Virus record (IMG/VR): IMGVR_UViG_3300024978_000002
Reading direction: 5' to 3' (one strand)
DNA from: a virus
Length of the DNA: 64,000 nucleotides
Shown: piece by piece, positions 20,912-63,832 of the stretch
How the letters are laid out: every line of letters begins with the position of its first letter
How positions within the stretch are numbered: the first letter of the stretch is position 1
Program-made: the position numbers and the translations under genes
The notes under the pieces: model-generated
Databases searched by the model: none
Told to the model about the DNA's origin: nothing
The model's input: only the letters and a program-made list of their open reading frames with translations

Positions 20912-20962
20912 CGCCCAGGCACCCTGACGGGGTGCCTGGGCGTGATCGTTCTTTTTTTTTGT
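20912..20962. terminator. Bidirectional terminator
   Basis: 13-bp stem CGCCCAGGCACCC / GGGTGCCTGGGCG plus a T-tract, between convergent genes. Confidence 0.8.
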
Positions 20963-25807: not shown

Positions 25808-27215
25808 CAATCACACACGTTGAAAGTCCCCTAAGGGCGCACCGCCCGAAGGAGGGTTCCATGTCAAAATCTGAAACACTCGACGAGAATGTGGTGTTCT
25901 CGCCGACCGAATCTGAAACTCATCCGGGATTTTTCGAAATACCTGACTTCCCTCACTATCTCGCTTCGCCGCATGGAGAAATCTGGTACAAGCGCAAAAA
26001 CAGTCTGATTCTACCGAGGGAGCATAAAACTTCGAAAGGTAGTTACTTAGCCGTTTCTGCTTGGAATGGTGAGAAGTTTCTCCACACTCTTGTACACCTC
26101 ATGGTGGCGGCAGCTTTCTACGGTCTTCCTCAAGGAGACCGAAATCAGGTTAACCACAAAGACGGTGACAAACACAACAACCACTTTAAGAACCTGGAGT
26201 GGGTGACTCGGACCGAGAATCTGATTCACGCCTATAAAACCGGGCTACGGACTGATGTCAGAGGCGTGTTGTGCGTCGACCACCAAACCGGCGAAGCGCA
26301 GGAGTTCTATTCGATGCGCGAGGTCGGTCGCCACTTCGGTTGGACTAAAGGGGAGATCTGGAGGACGATTCGAGATCACGCCGAAAAGAAATACCTTGAG
26401 CGCTACACGTTCCTACTTCCCCAGTCGGAAAGTTACAGCCTTAGGCAAAGACACTCCAAGGAGCAAGGCGGTGTCATTCGGGATATAGTCGCTAAGAACT
26501 ACCGAAACAACCAAGTTGCGATCTTTCCAGACCAAGGAACGGCAGAGTTGATGACCCACGTCAAACGAGGCACCATTAACTTCAACCTGAACCTCGCAGC
26601 CGAACCCTATCGCTTGATTAAAGGGTGGGTTTTCAAATACTTGGACGATCCGGCCGATTGGCCGGACTACTCTGAGGAAATGGTGGAGCTGTCCTTCCTC
26701 CGCAAAGCGGCTGGACAGCCCATCGAAGTTACGGATACCACGACTAACACCACCTGCAAATACACTTCGATACATGCATTTGCAGAGTCGCTGGGTGAAT
26801 ATCCAAACACCATAAGGCGCGCCTTGAAGAAAACTCCAGGGTGTTTCCGACATTTTGACATTAAGAACGTGATGTGATTAGTTTCCTCCGGTAGAGATAC
26901 CGGTTGATAGATCTCCTTAATTGCTGGAATCCCCTGAGAGCCGACATACCACTGCGAGGCGAAAGCCAAAGCGATAGGTTTGATAAGTTGTCGGATTGGG
27001 CAATCAGCAGCGAAGCTCCCTCGGTAAGTGCCGCTGAAAAGCGGGCCAGGGAGAACGTTCAACGACTAGCGAATGAGCTGCGTAGGGTCAAGTGATCCGA
27101 AATGGGAGAGGTCCTAACTCGAAAGAGAAGGATTAAGATATAGTCTCGTCTCTGGGGAAACTCAGAGCAGTCCTTAGGGACGGGTAGGGTGTAACGATCC
27201 CTACTGAAGATAACG
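25808..27215 (+). mobile_element. Group I intron encoding an HNH homing endonuclease
   Basis: 5' exon ends in U, intron ends in G. P element TTAATTGCTGGAATCC (26917), Q AATCAGCAG (27002), R GTTCAACGACTA (27057), S AAGATATAGTCT (27135); P7 GACTA/TAGTC. Splicing restores N-ADFDGD. Confidence 0.9.
25861..26877 (+). CDS. Intron-encoded HNH homing endonuclease (NUMOD4/HNH with C-terminal DNA-binding modules)
   Basis: VHLMVAAAF...QVNHKDGDKHNNHFKNLEWVTRTENLIHA; GGAGGG RBS before ATG 25861. Confidence 0.9.
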   Translation: MSKSETLDENVVFSPTESETHPGFFEIPDFPHYLASPHGEIWYKRKNSLILPREHKTSKGSYLAVSAWNGEKFLHTLVHLMVAAAFYGLPQGDRNQVNHKDGDKHNNHFKNLEWVTRTENLIHAYKTGLRTDVRGVLCVDHQTGEAQEFYSMREVGRHFGWTKGEIWRTIRDHAEKKYLERYTFLLPQSESYSLRQRHSKEQGGVIRDIVAKNYRNNQVAIFPDQGTAELMTHVKRGTINFNLNLAAEPYRLIKGWVFKYLDDPADWPDYSEEMVELSFLRKAAGQPIEVTDTTTNTTCKYTSIHAFAESLGEYPNTIRRALKKTPGCFRHFDIKNVM

Positions 27216-56654: not shown

Positions 56655-58328
56655 ATGACTAGTGAAAACGAAACGCCTGTTCCGGAAGAACCCATGGGAC
56701 TGCCGACAGAAGACGATATTCCTTCTCCTACGGACGGAGAGACCACTGTGGTAAACGCTGACGTCGTCCCCACTCTACCTAACACTCAGGTAGTGGAACC
56801 TGCTGAAGACGTGGGTTTGCCGGTAGAAGAGGAACTGGTAGCGGAGAAACCCAGCGCCGAAGACGTCGAAGCGGTGGTGATTCTGATGCGTCAGGGTGTC
56901 AACCCGAACGCGGAACTCAGCAAAGATCCGTCTCACCCGCTGAATCCCAAACAACCGTGGCGTCCGGGTGAAGGTTTGTATATCGTCCCCTGTACATCGG
57001 AAGAGTTTAATACGTTGGTAGAGAACGTCCCGCGTCTGGACCCCACACAGTCTGAACAAGGGATGCGTTGGCGCGAAGCCGTCGCCGCCGGTCAAGAGGT
57101 CATGCCACGCGCCGGCACCGGTCTAGCTGCTCTACTGCGCGAAGCGTCCATGTGGCGTCAGAGTGTATCGTCTAACGGTGAGGGTAGTGCCGAGATCGCC
57201 GCGGGTCGACCCAAGATCGGAGAGCGTAAGGGCGATGCCCCGCTTGTCGGTGAAGAAGCCCTCCAGCACATGCAGATGATGCTTGGTACTGGTCAGGTCA
57301 CACGCATCCCGTTGTGGCATTCGGGTATTTGGGTGAACCTCAAGGCTCCGACAGAAGACCGACTGTTGGAACTGGATCGTCGCATTGCAGCAGAGAAGAT
57401 CGCGTTAGGTCGAGCGACCAACGGGTTGGCTTTCTCGAATATGTCGATCTACCACAACAGCTTCCTGTTCAACTTTGCGTTGTCCATGGTCTTTGATTGT
57501 TCCATCGGTGGATTCACGGTCGACAGTCTGAAGCGAAAGATTCTACTGACCGATCTTCCAACACTGTTGTGGGGATTGCTGTGCACGATCTATCCAAATG
57601 GGTATCGCTACCAGCGTCCGTGTATCAACGACCCGTCCAAGTGTACTCATGTCGTGGAAGAAGTCCTGGACATTTCCAAGTTGTGCTGGACCGACAATAC
57701 CGCACTTACCCAGAGTCAGCGTAACCACATGGTACGCAAAACGGCTAAGTTCACCGATATCGAGCTGACCCATTACCAGGAACAGCATCGGTATGTTGAC
57801 AAGGGGACGGTTCTGCTGAAGGACTATCAGGGGAACAAGACCGTCGCCGAACTGCGTGTTCCGACGCTGGCCGATTACGAAGCCTCAGGGTTTGCCTGGG
57901 TTGAAGGTATCGTTACCAGCGCCGATCAAGCCTTCGGATCTCAGCTCGGTGGGGAAGAGCGTAACGAGTACATTCTCGACCAAGCCCGAGCGACTAGCTT
58001 GCGTCAATACGCTCACTGGATCAATCGTATCACGTTCAACGGTGACAAGTACATCGACGACCGTGCGACGCTCGAGTCAATGATCGGTCAGCTCACAGGC
58101 GATCGTGTCGTGTTTGAGAATCTGCTGGAAGGTGTGCGTAAGTTCATTGACGAAGCCACGATTTCGCAGATTGCCATCCCGTCGTACAAGTGTCCGGCGT
58201 GCCAGCTCGACCAAGTCAATCCGGAAGAGTCCAAGCATCCGCACCTGATCCCGTTGGATATCGGTACCATTTTTTTTATCCTACTCGGCCAGCGAACCAG
58301 CTTGCTGCTGGACACGGCGATTATCTGA
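56655..58328 (+). CDS. Baseplate hub / tail assembly protein (T4 gp26-like)
   Basis: Acidic disordered N-terminus, KAPT and RVPT repeats, CINDPSKC and YKCPAC, C-terminal LDIGTIFF. Confidence 0.65.
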   Translation: MTSENETPVPEEPMGLPTEDDIPSPTDGETTVVNADVVPTLPNTQVVEPAEDVGLPVEEELVAEKPSAEDVEAVVILMRQGVNPNAELSKDPSHPLNPKQPWRPGEGLYIVPCTSEEFNTLVENVPRLDPTQSEQGMRWREAVAAGQEVMPRAGTGLAALLREASMWRQSVSSNGEGSAEIAAGRPKIGERKGDAPLVGEEALQHMQMMLGTGQVTRIPLWHSGIWVNLKAPTEDRLLELDRRIAAEKIALGRATNGLAFSNMSIYHNSFLFNFALSMVFDCSIGGFTVDSLKRKILLTDLPTLLWGLLCTIYPNGYRYQRPCINDPSKCTHVVEEVLDISKLCWTDNTALTQSQRNHMVRKTAKFTDIELTHYQEQHRYVDKGTVLLKDYQGNKTVAELRVPTLADYEASGFAWVEGIVTSADQAFGSQLGGEERNEYILDQARATSLRQYAHWINRITFNGDKYIDDRATLESMIGQLTGDRVVFENLLEGVRKFIDEATISQIAIPSYKCPACQLDQVNPEESKHPHLIPLDIGTIFFILLGQRTSLLLDTAII

Positions 58329-58789
58329 TTCAACAGGACGACAAACAAGGCCATGTCTTGTTTCCGTCCTTTGGACTGGAAAAAGCCGAAACGCTTTCCC
58401 CTATCAAAAAACTGATGGAGGCGATGCGTGCCAGTGGTCGTGCGACGTTAGACAGTATCGACGCGCAGTTGCTCTTAAGAGAGCTCTACGATTCGGACTA
58501 CGCGATTGGTTATCACAACAATCCACAGCGACCACTATCGTTGGTTGGGCTCCAGCCGAAAGAAACGGTCGGTCCCTACACCCGTGAACGACGATTGTAT
58601 CACCGCTATGCCACGTTAAAGATCCATGAACTCTTTGGTCTTTCAATCGAACGCTTCCTAGCGCAACCTCGAGAGAAAGTCGAGTGGATGTTGGAAATCG
58701 CCGAGGAACGTGGGGCGGTGGAGAATCGTAACAACCAGCAGATCGAAACAGCGATGCGTCTAGCACAACAAGGCGCTCCCCGCCTTTGA
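58277..58789 (+). CDS. T4 gp51-like / gpT-like chaperone segment, probably expressed by -1 frameshift from the upstream ORF
   Basis: The -1 frame is open from 58190 to 58789 with no good start before the conserved-looking GHV..FG region; slippery T8 run at 58270-58277; FGLSIERFLAQPRE..WML motif. Confidence 0.65.
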   Translation, partial: YPTRPANQLAAGHGDYLIQQDDKQGHVLFPSFGLEKAETLSPIKKLMEAMRASGRATLDSIDAQLLLRELYDSDYAIGYHNNPQRPLSLVGLQPKETVGPYTRERRLYHRYATLKIHELFGLSIERFLAQPREKVEWMLEIAEERGAVENRNNQQIETAMRLAQQGAPRL

Positions 58790-58793
58790 GGAG

Positions 58794-59246
58794 GTGTCGA
58801 TGATTATCTACGATGGTCCCGGTGACCTCTTTGAATGTGGGGTTCAAACCGTAGTGTGTCCCGTGAACACCGTACAGGTGATGGGTAAAGGACTGGCCTT
58901 AGCGTTCAAACAACGGGTGCCGGGATTAGAAGCGTTCTACAAGGATCAGTATCCCAGTCCCAATGCCATCCTAAAACTGGCAGTTTTCGACGTGGACTCG
59001 GAACGTAAGGTGTTGCTGTTCCCCACCAAACAGGACTGGCGTCAACCAGGTCGTTTGGACATGATCCATGCAAATTTGGTACAACTGGCGAATCGTTACA
59101 CCGAGTGGGGTATCATGTCATTGGGTATACCGCTCTTGGGGTGTGGGGTGGATACCGGTCAGCTAGATTGGTTAGCTCAGGTGAAACCGATCGTATACCA
59201 GTTCTTGGATCCCTGTGATTTACCCGTGAAAATCATGCACGGTTGA
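58794..59246 (+). CDS. Macrodomain (DarG-like ADP-ribosyl hydrolase)
   Basis: GDLF..VVCPVNTVQVMGKGLALAFK..P, LFPTK.DWR, SLGIPLLGCG; GAGGAGG RBS. Confidence 0.85.
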   Translation: MSMIIYDGPGDLFECGVQTVVCPVNTVQVMGKGLALAFKQRVPGLEAFYKDQYPSPNAILKLAVFDVDSERKVLLFPTKQDWRQPGRLDMIHANLVQLANRYTEWGIMSLGIPLLGCGVDTGQLDWLAQVKPIVYQFLDPCDLPVKIMHG

Positions 59247-60860: not shown

Positions 60861-60922
60861 CATACACCCCCTACTGACCACTTGGGTCAGTAGGGGGTGT
60901 ATGGAGTCCTTCTTTTTTTTTT
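60861..60922. terminator. Bidirectional terminator with CATACACCCC arms
   Basis: Perfect 19-bp stem CATACACCCCCTACTGACC / GGTCAGTAGGGGGTGTATG plus a long T-tract. Confidence 0.85.
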
Positions 60923-63832
60923 TCAGTTTGGCGTATGAGCGAGGAACGCCACGTTGACGTCATCGTCCACTCCGATCGTACCGTCGGCTTTAGCCACCGC
61001 TTTCTTACGAATGGACAAACGTGCCGAGTCGTCCAGCAATGTCACGGTATCGTACGGTGTACTGCCGCCCAGACCCGTTACACTGATACCGATGGAATCG
61101 CTCATGACCTCATCGCGCAACGCACTGATGATCGCCGACAACGTCACCACCGAACCTTGAAGTTGGTCGTGAATGACTTTGATCGCGGCGGCTGTCAAAG
61201 CGGTACGTAAAGCCGCATCACGGTACTGGGTACCAGACAGGTAGTACGTCACGGCAAAGCTCTGTGCCGAGTTGATTGACACCGTCTTGTTCTCCAATAC
61301 CTTGACGTTGATATTACCCAGCGTCGCTTTTGGATAGAAATACAGAACGGTTTGTTCAAGTAACGTAGCTTGCACCGAAGCGATGTCTTCCGACAACCAA
61401 TCTGTGATCGTCGCCGGGACTGACTGTTTGTAATCAACGGTGGCCTGGTCAGTGGCGAAAGCGTAAGCGCCGTCCACCAAAAAGATGTCAATTTGCCGCA
61501 ACATCTGTCGGGAAGACACTACGACGGGATTTCCATCGACGTCCTGGACGATATCTCCGGCGAAGTGCTTCATCACCGGCTGCCCTTGGTCGTTCAACAC
61601 TGGGTCACCCTTCTGATGAAGAATCACGAACTGGATGTTGTTGTTACCATCCACGGTCCACTCGATAGCCCCTGTGACAGGATCACGTTGGTAGATGATC
61701 TCGCTGTACACAGCCGGAACGTCCGCCAGGTACCGTTGGTAGTCCTGGGACGATGCCACGGAGCGCGAAGCTGCCCATAGACCAGGTAGAGCCTTGCCGA
61801 GTTGCACTGTGAGGCGTTCCTGTGATAGTCCGATGGTGTCAGCCGTCACTAAGGTTCGTCCGAGGTCTTCGTCGATCGTGGAAGGAGTGAACCCTTCGAC
61901 CTCAATTTGATTAGCCAAGAACATGATGTCAATATCGACGTCTAAAGGACACGGATAGACGTGAACCGGATCATCGAACATCTGGAATGTATTGACCAGA
62001 AGACTATCAGTTGCGTCCAGGTCGTATTCCGTACCAATCAGGAATGTAAAGACACGATCACCTGCCGCAGTTAAACCCACCTGCGTTCCGTTCTGATACG
62101 CACGGTTACGCTCACCGGTGGGAAAGAAGCTTGCCTGACAGAACACTTGGCTGTCCGACAGATCTTTCCAAGCCTGTCCGGAAGTCACTGTCACTGTTAA
62201 GAGATAACCTTGCGGTACACGGTTAATTTGGTATCCTTTCACATTGACCGAGATCTGACTGGTGGGGTTCTCGGTGATGAAACTCTTGGTTTCCACCGCC
62301 GGGGCTTCCAGGTAATACGGACGATGTTCGAACCGATCGTCAGACATATCCAACACATAGTGGAACGGGGAGTATAGGAAGTTGTTCTCGTTCACCCGTC
62401 GTGCGCGGACGTCCACAGGTAATGCGTTCAAGGAATCGACCACTGATTGTGGGACGATACTGATCACGCCGTTGACGTTTTGATAGAGCGTACTGGGTAG
62501 CAACGTGACACGATTGCCGTTGTCACTGGCGGTGGGGAGTGCGGCCAACTTTGCCATGGATTCTGTCAAAGTCAACATTGTGCAACCCGCGCCAGAGATG
62601 GTCGATCCGTCGATAGGTTCCGGTAGGGATCGCGTAGCTAGAAACTGACGGTTGGTGATGTTGTCTACGTCCAAGACAAGATCGTAACCCATATCTGCTA
62701 ACCGTGAACCAATATTCACGTTGGTGATCGGAACATTGACCTTACCTAAGGAGTTCGTGATCACGCGATCACGCAGATCGGCCAGTGACAAAGCGTCTCG
62801 ACCACCAGAGATGGTATTGTCTGAGAACAGGGAATAGGTATTGAATTTCGTAATGACCGATTGAAAGGCATCCAATGCCTTCACGTCATGATCCAACCAA
62901 TGAGCCGTGAATTGACTGGGGGTGTAATCGGCCAGGACGATTTCCAGTGGTCCTCGAGTCGTATAGATATCCACACGCAGTTCGGTGTCCAACATACGAA
63001 GCGTCGTGTAGACCTGTGGGATACGCACGGTGAGAGTCTGTCCGTTGACCTGTAAAGCGGCCGTGGGGACGTTAGGGTCAAAAACCTGGTCCGTGTGAGT
63101 CGTTTTGATCTCGATCCAATTACCCAGACTGTCGGCACGATAGACGCGTGCATAGTGGAATTGATCTTGGAACGTAAATGTCTTTACCGACAATTGGGAA
63201 CGATTCAAAGTGTACGACTGAGAAAGAATGGCGAACTGGTACATCGGAATGTCCAGACGCACAAACGACTCACCTTGATACTTGACGTTCTTGGTCGCTA
63301 CTTGATTCGACGTCAGTTCCTGTAAGGGGGACAACTGAGTGTTATCGTACACTACCGACAGGCCCCCATGTGGCATAATCCGAATTTCAATGGGGTACTG
63401 GAGGGTGAAGGTCAGCCCCGCTACCACGATTTCCGTATGTCGAGGAATGACGAGTTTCCGCGCGCCTGCGGTACCGTACTCCACTGCCCGTCGATAGATC
63501 TCATCCCGTCCCAGATAAAGGGTGAACGTCGCCTTGGCCGGCTGAGCAAACCGATCGGCGTAATCGTCATCGGACATATGCAAGTAGAGATCGTCCTGCG
63601 TCATCGACAGCGAGGGGTACTGCCGGCGGTTAAAGGCTTCCTGCTCAAGAAGAAGCGCCGAGGCGTTAACTCCACCGGTCTCTAACAGATGCATATACGG
63701 ACTGGTGGGGTTAGCTATGTCAATAGCGCCGTCCATGGTCGCTTGTAGCTGATCCAGGGCATCGGAAATGACCAGCTGGGGATTGGCAAGGTGCCGGCGT
63801 GCGGCGCTTACCCAATCAAGAATTGAAGTCAT
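60923..63832 (-). CDS. Large baseplate/virion structural protein (baseplate wedge-like)
   Basis: 969 aa; NPTSPY..LLE, AKATF, SGGRD..SL..LR.RVI segments resemble baseplate J/gp6-type proteins. Confidence 0.7.
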   Translation of the reverse strand: MTSILDWVSAARRHLANPQLVISDALDQLQATMDGAIDIANPTSPYMHLLETGGVNASALLLEQEAFNRRQYPSLSMTQDDLYLHMSDDDYADRFAQPAKATFTLYLGRDEIYRRAVEYGTAGARKLVIPRHTEIVVAGLTFTLQYPIEIRIMPHGGLSVVYDNTQLSPLQELTSNQVATKNVKYQGESFVRLDIPMYQFAILSQSYTLNRSQLSVKTFTFQDQFHYARVYRADSLGNWIEIKTTHTDQVFDPNVPTAALQVNGQTLTVRIPQVYTTLRMLDTELRVDIYTTRGPLEIVLADYTPSQFTAHWLDHDVKALDAFQSVITKFNTYSLFSDNTISGGRDALSLADLRDRVITNSLGKVNVPITNVNIGSRLADMGYDLVLDVDNITNRQFLATRSLPEPIDGSTISGAGCTMLTLTESMAKLAALPTASDNGNRVTLLPSTLYQNVNGVISIVPQSVVDSLNALPVDVRARRVNENNFLYSPFHYVLDMSDDRFEHRPYYLEAPAVETKSFITENPTSQISVNVKGYQINRVPQGYLLTVTVTSGQAWKDLSDSQVFCQASFFPTGERNRAYQNGTQVGLTAAGDRVFTFLIGTEYDLDATDSLLVNTFQMFDDPVHVYPCPLDVDIDIMFLANQIEVEGFTPSTIDEDLGRTLVTADTIGLSQERLTVQLGKALPGLWAASRSVASSQDYQRYLADVPAVYSEIIYQRDPVTGAIEWTVDGNNNIQFVILHQKGDPVLNDQGQPVMKHFAGDIVQDVDGNPVVVSSRQMLRQIDIFLVDGAYAFATDQATVDYKQSVPATITDWLSEDIASVQATLLEQTVLYFYPKATLGNINVKVLENKTVSINSAQSFAVTYYLSGTQYRDAALRTALTAAAIKVIHDQLQGSVVTLSAIISALRDEVMSDSIGISVTGLGGSTPYDTVTLLDDSARLSIRKKAVAKADGTIGVDDDVNVAFLAHTPN

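Follow-up and report, generated by a model that had tools for sequence, protein, structure and literature searches.

A probable programmed −1 ribosomal frameshift conserved in the gp77-family gene of jumbo phages

The DNA examined here is a stretch of 64,000 nucleotides (nt) of the viral record IMGVR_UViG_3300024978_000002 from IMG/VR, with a GC content of 52%, to which we refer as the window and on which all coordinates are based unless another locus is named. On its plus strand lies an open reading frame (ORF), ORF1, whose product belongs to the family of phiKZ gp77, 201phi2-1 gp136 and EL gp47, as given in the GenBank notes on the 201phi2-1 homolog. The 3′ end of ORF1 overlaps a second frame, ORF2, displaced by −1 with respect to the first, and at a run of eight T residues (T8) the two are probably connected by programmed −1 ribosomal frameshifting, so that the same gene would yield a short and a long protein. 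The elements of the locus are the following.

56655-58328, plus strand: ORF1, with a zero-frame product of 557 amino acids (aa).
58151 to 58787-58789, plus strand: −1 frame, open throughout up to its stop codon at 58787-58789.
58269-58280, plus strand: codons ATT TTT TTT ATC, the first three of which encode Ile539, Phe540 and Phe541.
58270-58277, plus strand: T8 run, containing the in-phase heptamer T_TTT_TTT at 58271-58277.
58277-58328, plus strand: dual-frame overlap, which encodes the C-terminal helix ILLGQRTSLLLDTAII, up to the stop, in the zero frame.
58277-58328, plus strand: the same overlap read in the −1 frame, a Pro/Ala-rich linker, YPTRPANQLAAGHGDYL, with neither a stop nor a start codon.
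58326-58328, plus strand: TGA stop of ORF1, 16 codons past the heptamer and 18 from the first Phe codon.
58277-58789, plus strand: −1 part of the transframe product (170 codons and a stop), comprising the linker, a GHV....FG motif and a helical domain.
58349-58375, plus strand: conserved GHV....FG motif in the −1 frame, from the peptide alignment of relatives.
58358-58360, plus strand: TTG, the first canonical start in the −1 frame after the slip site, with a weak AAGG at 58347-58350.

A backward slip of one base on both Phe codons would join 541 zero-frame residues to 170 residues of the −1 frame, giving a protein of 711 aa with the junction ...GTIFF/YPTR (...IFF/YPTRPANQ... when read further); the corresponding junction in the phiKZ-type phage OMKO1 reads ...STFF/YFGGLEVKPDGVVNDLR. 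This layout had been put forward in a first-pass annotation made from the letters alone, and the sequence bears out the positions that it gave for the four codons and for the heptamer, the −1 frame open through 58789, and the fusion of about 711 aa beside the 557-aa product with its junction peptide GTIFFYPTR. It had also stated that the −1 frame lacks a plausible start ahead of its conserved region, and indeed no ATG, GTG or TTG occurs from the heptamer to the TTG at 58358, just past GHV. The distance of 17 codons that it gave from the site to the stop has to be corrected to 16 after the heptamer. Both strands of the window contain 12 matches to T7, versus 9.2 expected, so that such a run does not by itself exceed chance; the case therefore rests on the comparison of relatives and not on this single genome. 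Phe is preferentially written as TTC in the window (446 codons versus 244 TTT), and TTT TTT is its rarest FF codon pair (2/31).

Homologous loci were gathered from GenBank (7) and IMG/VR (78), representing 77 non-identical junctions whose ORF1 products are 21-68% identical in aa sequence to that of the window. The set was later extended by four GenBank phages of greater distance, among them the Bacillus phage AgentSmith, which brings the GenBank records examined to 11 altogether. Across relatives, the conserved FF dipeptide is written as NNT TTT TTY. Its first codon is TTT in 73/73 loci, as compared with 37% of the Phe codons elsewhere in the same ORFs, and its second codon is TTT in 50 of them and TTC in 23, a freedom permitted by the X_XXY_YYZ pattern. 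The wobble base just before FF is T in 61/73 loci, against a background of 28.5% for third-position T, and these T-ending codons specify ten different amino acids (Ile, Thr, Leu, Val, Ala, Asn, Ser, His, Tyr and Gly). Information at this wobble position reaches 1.28 bits, with no more than 0.3 bits at the adjoining ones. In the 73 loci, the heptamers are distributed as T_TTT_TTT (42), T_TTT_TTC (19), G_TTT_TTT (8), G_TTT_TTC (3) and A_TTT_TTC (1), and the run itself measures T9 in 3, T8 in 15, T7 in 37, T6 in 14 and T5 in 8 of the 77 loci. Conservation of the slippery run in orthologs, for which the first-pass annotation had asked to look, is thus found at both the first Phe codon and the wobble base before it. 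Two more cases agree with this. In AgentSmith the residues are altered to V-F-L, yet the codons GTT TTT TTA stay slippery, and T4 gp26 encodes a homologous FFELL with TTC TTT and ends three codons after FF. Together, they point to a constraint at the FF site that is exerted on the nucleotides, beyond the amino acids alone, as judged from these alignments.

The arrangement of the frames around the site is equally regular. The downstream ORF sits in the −1 frame in all loci and this frame is open for at least 152 codons from the site in 77/77, which answers the call of the first-pass annotation to check the frame overlap in orthologs, and the zero-frame stop falls 10-39 codons past the site in all 77 relatives. 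The +1 frame, used as a control, reaches the ORF1 stop in 34/77 loci and extends to 100 codons in 2/77. When aligned, the −1 peptides begin with a poorly conserved Pro/Ala-rich linker, followed by a His-Val....Phe-Gly motif and then by the helical domain. Only 1/77 loci has a canonical start in the stretch from the site to the ORF1 stop; the first such start lies beyond the conserved His in 61/77 and beyond FG in 48/77, and in OMKO1 it is located 87 codons past the site. The ORF1 stop is placed at or past the conserved His in 12 loci and, in three of these, the entire His..FG motif is contained within ORF1, by 18 codons, which implies that translation of the motif must enter from upstream. Termination-reinitiation was considered as a general mechanism and excluded by the conserved motif lying at or inside the ORF1 end in some loci. 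From the arrangement of these frames, independent initiation of ORF2 would be a minor contributor at most. No ortholog with both parts fused in frame was found among the 77 IMG/VR and GenBank loci.

Searches for a stimulatory element around the site were negative. The 68 nt that follow the site in the window fold no better than their shuffled versions (z = −0.44), the mean z over the 77 loci is −0.37, RNAalifold applied to nine relatives predicts 0 pairs in a consensus structure, and Shine-Dalgarno (SD)-like motifs upstream of the site are not enriched among relatives. The modest stems that the first-pass annotation had pointed out downstream of the site (CAGCGA/TTGCTG and CCAGC/GCTGG) are thus at chance level and are not conserved. 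Stimulatory elements are common at −1 frameshift sites but not obligatory, and the slip site of the gp77 family seems to depend on the U-run itself.

The T8 run is present in several independent assemblies. Contigs from three independent studies, two of soil and one of an activated-sludge metagenome, span 58270-58277 without indels; they are about 1% diverged from the window, with substitutions elsewhere only. The homopolymer indel that the first-pass annotation wished to see excluded is in this way addressed at the level of contigs. A deviation occurs in the record of Xanthomonas phage RTH11, which shows T7 where the window, LucasX and a further locus of the set (L008) show T8. There, an ORF1 annotated with 627 aa runs 70 codons into the third frame (L002:2500-2712; OQ790161.1, ~26804-27016) and overlaps the ORF2 homolog. 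The probable cause is an error in sequencing the homopolymer, which is the simplest reading, or a mis-annotation of the record.

From the slip site, the layout of the two frames and the conservation of both, we infer that a programmed −1 ribosomal frameshift takes place at the T-run of ORF1, a reading to which we assign a probability of roughly 80%. Most ribosomes would read ATT TTT TTT ATC in frame and stop at the TGA at 58326, producing the 557-aa protein with its C-terminal helix. A fraction of them would slip back by one base with tRNA-Phe in both the P and the A sites on U_UUU_UUU, where the two tRNAs can re-pair perfectly after the slip, and would go on reading the −1 frame, from 58277 to 58789, to make a protein of 711 aa. 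In this long form, a flexible linker and a helical domain of 140 residues would take the place of the terminal helix, and the downstream frame would for the most part extend the C-terminus of the gp77-family protein by recoding, rather than being a gene in its own right. The main claim of the first-pass annotation, an unannotated −1 recoding event that fuses ORF1 to a frame without a start of its own, is strongly supported by the relatives. Several observations weigh against this interpretation. The first base of the heptamer is G in 11 loci and A in one, and four loci possess T5 only, with the site shifted by one codon, all of which entails weaker re-pairing in the P site. The raw probability of the site conservation (log10 P ~ −41) overstates its significance because the loci share ancestry. 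As no stimulator was found downstream or upstream of the site, the frameshift efficiency may be low. In the window, the TTG at 58358 with its weak AAGG could begin a separate, N-terminally shortened ORF2, and in 201phi2-1 and RP31 a TTG or ATG overlaps the ORF1 stop, so some independent or coupled initiation of ORF2 is possible.

The main mechanistic rival is transcriptional slippage, whereby the phage or host RNA polymerase would add one U at the T8 in some mRNAs and the same two proteins would result from recoding at the RNA level. The run measures T7-T9 in 55/77 loci, no ribosomal stimulator was detected, and the difference between the T7 of RTH11 and the T8 of its closest relatives indicates a run prone to length errors, either by sequencing or by polymerase. 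Known sites of polymerase slippage, such as the A9 of Thermus dnaX and the T9 of Shigella, require about 8-9 bases, for which the T5-T6 runs of 22/77 loci would be too short. Moreover, the conservation is phase-specific (NNT TTT TTY in the frame of ORF1) and tolerates a final C, a pattern that fits tRNA re-pairing better than polymerase slippage, which we regard as unlikely. Another idea is that no recoding occurs at all, ORF2 being a separate gene with its own start (TTG 58358 in the window; non-canonical or coupled starts elsewhere) and the T-run being kept for the FF of ORF1. Two genes are annotated in 11/11 GenBank records examined, and starts can be proposed in several of them besides the TTG with AAGG of the window: a GTG at the valine of GHV in LucasX and RTH11, in the latter with a strong GAGGAGG ahead of it, and the TTG or ATG already mentioned for 201phi2-1 and RP31. 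A start at TTG 58358 would, nevertheless, remove the conserved GHV motif, no canonical start precedes FG in 48/77 loci, and in three loci the entire motif lies within ORF1. Selection for FF as such does not account for a first Phe codon that is never TTC in 73 loci or for a preceding wobble T maintained across 10 amino acids, whereas T4 gp26 retains FF written TTC TTT. Likewise, the −1 frame remains unclosed between the site and the ORF1 stop in 77/77 loci, versus 34/77 for the +1 frame, and the explanation by two independent genes appears quite unlikely to us.

It might be argued, finally, that a one-base assembly error in the homopolymer has split a single 711-aa gene into two frames, since homopolymers are error-prone and RTH11 differs by one T. 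Such an artefact is very improbable: T8 appears without indel in three independent assemblies, relatives from many sequencing projects display the identical two-frame layout in 77/77 cases, and no in-frame fused ortholog came to light in the same set. Furthermore, the zero-frame tail follows the family profile right up to its end, and its model is a helix predicted with confidence.

The programmed frameshift would operate in a protein typical of jumbo phages. ORF1 matches phrog_4585 over its full length, with the zero-frame tail included to residue 556 (expectation value, E, 2e-114), and tblastn detected the gp77 family in 221 phage records, all of them jumbo phages, which infect Pseudomonas, Erwinia, Salmonella, Serratia, Ralstonia, Vibrio, Xanthomonas, Bacillus and other hosts. 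Neither ORF1 nor the downstream part has a match in Pfam or NCBIfam. The AlphaFold model of ORF1 (predicted local distance difference test, pLDDT, 82.8; predicted template modelling score, pTM, 0.80) presents disordered residues 1-82, a folded core that includes a CPxC zinc-ribbon-like motif, and a terminal helix (536-556) opened by FF540-541. According to these models, the short form would end in an amphipathic helix that the long form would swap for a linker and an extra domain.

Foldseek searches with the ORF1 model in BFVD retrieved its own family first (E 1e-40 to 1e-19), followed by proteins of ~250 aa named T4-like baseplate hub assembly protein or hub subunit (E 3e-5 to 5e-3), with template modelling (TM) scores of 0.45-0.58 by target and 0.25-0.33 by query. 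Against the PDB, neither Foldseek nor sequence profiles found anything for ORF1 and VIA-align gave only helix-level matches (Z <= 6.2); accordingly, no solved structure of the T4 gp26/gp51 family was matched with Foldseek in the PDB or with VIA-align. The window protein has no hit to PF12322 (T4_baseplate) at E <= 1, and 1/56 relatives matches it with E 0.0086. With hhalign, AIPxxKCPxC...FFxLL was matched to the C-terminus of T4 gp26 over 27 columns, with 30% probability and E 5e-4. T4 gp26 (gene 26; L086:2803-3429, minus strand) ends in ...CPECGKTHAHVIRGLKEFFELL, followed by its stop, and this end aligns with CPxC...FFxLL at the frameshift site of the jumbo phages. In our view ORF1 is distantly related to the T4 gp26/gp51 family of assembly factors and enlarged with respect to it, with a membership that is not firm.

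The −1 frame matches a family of its own, phrog_12109 (147 profile positions; E 1.1e-26), to which 201phi2-1 gp135 belongs, and the match begins at nt 58328, where ORF1 stops. The AlphaFold model of the transframe tail (pLDDT 84) comprises a low-confidence linker of ~30 residues and a helical domain that closes with a 35-residue helix. The added domain was considered as a gp51-type or gp26-type protein and rejected, as it bears no similarity to T4 gp51 or gp26. The first-pass annotation had likened the two halves to gp26- and gp51-type proteins: the distant resemblance of ORF1 to that family stands, and the downstream part matches neither protein. Structural searches with the added domain yielded nothing informative with Foldseek in the PDB, a best Z of 5.3, on long helices, in a wide VIA-align search, TM <= 0.32 in the ESM Atlas, and one unnamed 107-aa protein (E 0.012) in the AFDB clusters. 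Prediction of a complex between the ORF1 core and the added domain reached a score of 0.63, a value attained by 58/80 solved complexes and 2/110 mismatched pairs, against 0.00 for the best control. The runs share at least 26% of their contacts, with a partner pLDDT of at least 53, and the predicted interface involves conserved ORF1 residues (213-242, 312-315 and 545-548). These models support binding of the added domain to the ORF1 core, either in the long form itself or across the two forms, long and short, and docking on this conserved core is accordingly predicted rather than observed.

Published work provides two hints about the role of the protein. The text on the phiKZ virion atlas, which deals with 40 constituent proteins, makes no mention of gp77 (PMC13250141), in agreement with a non-virion assembly factor. 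The Churi homolog of phiKZ gp077 was detected by proteomics in early infection (PMC11849849), which shows that the protein is made and sits uneasily with a purely late role of gp77. Assembly of the baseplate hub is the likely task of the gp77 family, as a non-virion factor with a relationship to T4 gp26/gp51.

A link of ORF1 to T4 gp26/gp51 (PF12322) is suggested by the fold matches in BFVD and, weakly, by the hhalign match of CPxC...FFxLL, and the absence of gp77 from the virion atlas text would be expected of an assembly factor; ORF1 is twice as long. In T4, gene 26 is followed by gene 25, without a frame comparable to ORF2, and a second gene 26 product (annotated 26′) arises by internal in-frame initiation and not by frameshifting. 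T4 26′ and the gp77 frameshift may thus be different routes to two isoforms in what is perhaps the same family.

Frameshifts of this kind are classical. In T7 gene 10 (10A/10B) and Escherichia coli dnaX (tau/gamma), a −1 frameshift near the 3′ end of the gene produces two C-terminal variants, and the gp77 locus resembles both in the in-phase heptamer near the zero-frame stop and in products that share their N-terminal body and differ C-terminally, in another gene family. The T7 gene 10 site, G_GUU_UUC, relies on tRNA-Phe, as the gp77 site likewise would. In dnaX, an SD-like element lies upstream of the site and a hairpin downstream, and frameshifting yields the shorter product; at the gp77 site neither of these elements was found, and the long form would gain a whole conserved domain of 140 residues.

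Tail-assembly chaperones of long-tailed phages offer another parallel, a conserved −1 frameshift in them having reportedly been described by Xu, Hendrix and Duda in 2004. Like lambda G/GT and P2 E/E+E′, the gp77 gene would keep its −1 frameshift across a whole group despite barely conserved protein sequence. The two systems also have in common short and long forms of a presumed non-virion assembly factor, with an added domain that, in the models of gp77, would contact a partner surface. They differ in that the gp77 locus is not placed between the tail tube and tape-measure genes, in the size of the short form (557 aa versus about 140 aa), and in that gp77 homology points to baseplate-hub assembly and not to tape-measure chaperones; the gp77-family protein has no match to any tail-chaperone family in Pfam, NCBIfam or PHROG. 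The comparison with lambda G/GT and P2 E/E′ made in the first-pass annotation should consequently be read as an analogy of mechanism, since both position and family differ.

More speculatively, short and long gp77 might act as a pair, in a fixed ratio, to chaperone the assembly of the giant baseplate hub in nucleus-forming jumbo phages, the added domain docking on the conserved core of a short-form subunit. The logic of G/GT would in that case have arisen independently in the gp26/gp51 lineage, with a frameshift that has persisted without an RNA stimulator ever since phiKZ-like phages of Gram-negative hosts and those of Bacillus shared an ancestor. We put forward this scenario tentatively and hold it, taken as a whole, to be rather doubtful.

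The frameshift is unannotated in 11/11 GenBank records examined, each of which lists two separate genes, and no description of it in the gp77 family was found in full-text literature searches. The kind of event is classical (T7 10A/10B, dnaX, lambda G/GT). In four of these records the annotated downstream gene begins at the first internal ATG and encodes only 77-120 aa, although the −1 frame is open for 140-160 codons beyond the ORF1 stop.

L004:3282-3524: truncated downstream annotation in OMKO1, an 80-aa remnant.
L087:2892-3125: truncated downstream annotation in AgentSmith, a 77-aa remnant.
L007:2756-3115: truncated downstream annotation in Xoo-sp14.
L088:2403-2711: truncated downstream annotation in phiEaH2.

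The GenBank remnant of OMKO1 is explained by the remote position of its first canonical start, 87 codons past the site. More generally, the conserved N-terminal part of the downstream frame is unannotated in many jumbo-phage records. If the frameshift is real, every genome of phiKZ-like (Chimalliviridae-type) jumbo phages would be mis-annotated at a core gene, and the downstream ‘small hypothetical protein’, often annotated from an arbitrary internal ATG (77-80 aa, as compared with ~150 conserved codons), would represent the C-terminal domain in a second isoform of gp77. The frameshift would also stand as a deeply conserved recoding event in a phage group that is intensively investigated because of its nucleus, its evasion of defences and its use in therapy. 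It would open an uncharacterised core protein to testing and supply a case of frameshifting on a bare U-run without detectable stimulator. Its practical use would lie in corrected annotations, the reanalysis of proteomics data and isoform-specific phiKZ mutants.

Several genes surround the locus. On the same strand, ORF1 is preceded by a gp78-like gene and followed by a macro-domain gene, with small genes of unknown function nearby, and the opposite strand carries, upstream of ORF1, a gp79-like gene and the gene for the virion RNA polymerase beta subunit. The macro-domain gene (58794-59246, plus strand) matches Pfam Macro (E 0.0012) and phrog_335, ‘phosphatase’ (E 6.6e-18). It starts 5 nt past the ORF2 stop, behind a strong GGAGG SD sequence, in contrast with ORF2, which has no such signal before it.

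The nearest records in phage collections are the Xanthomonas phages RTH11 and LucasX, with ~71% nucleotide identity. The source of the window is a metagenome of a bioreactor or of wastewater. DNA ~99% identical to 57900-58700 occurs in soil and activated-sludge contigs from at least three studies, and near-identical DNA is also found, by word share, in wastewater and bioreactor runs. An uncultured jumbo phage similar to the Xanthomonas phages thus seems to be widespread. Contigs from X17, a metagenome labelled as RNA, cover 58468-58700 only, outside the slip site.

Longer T-runs exist elsewhere in the window. One is a T9 run at 20952-20960. Another, of T11 (60913-60923), is located at the 3′ end of a minus-strand gene for a 969-aa virion protein (60923-63832), where it overlaps the last base of the stop codon and faces plus-strand genes that converge on that gene; it is likely part of a terminator.

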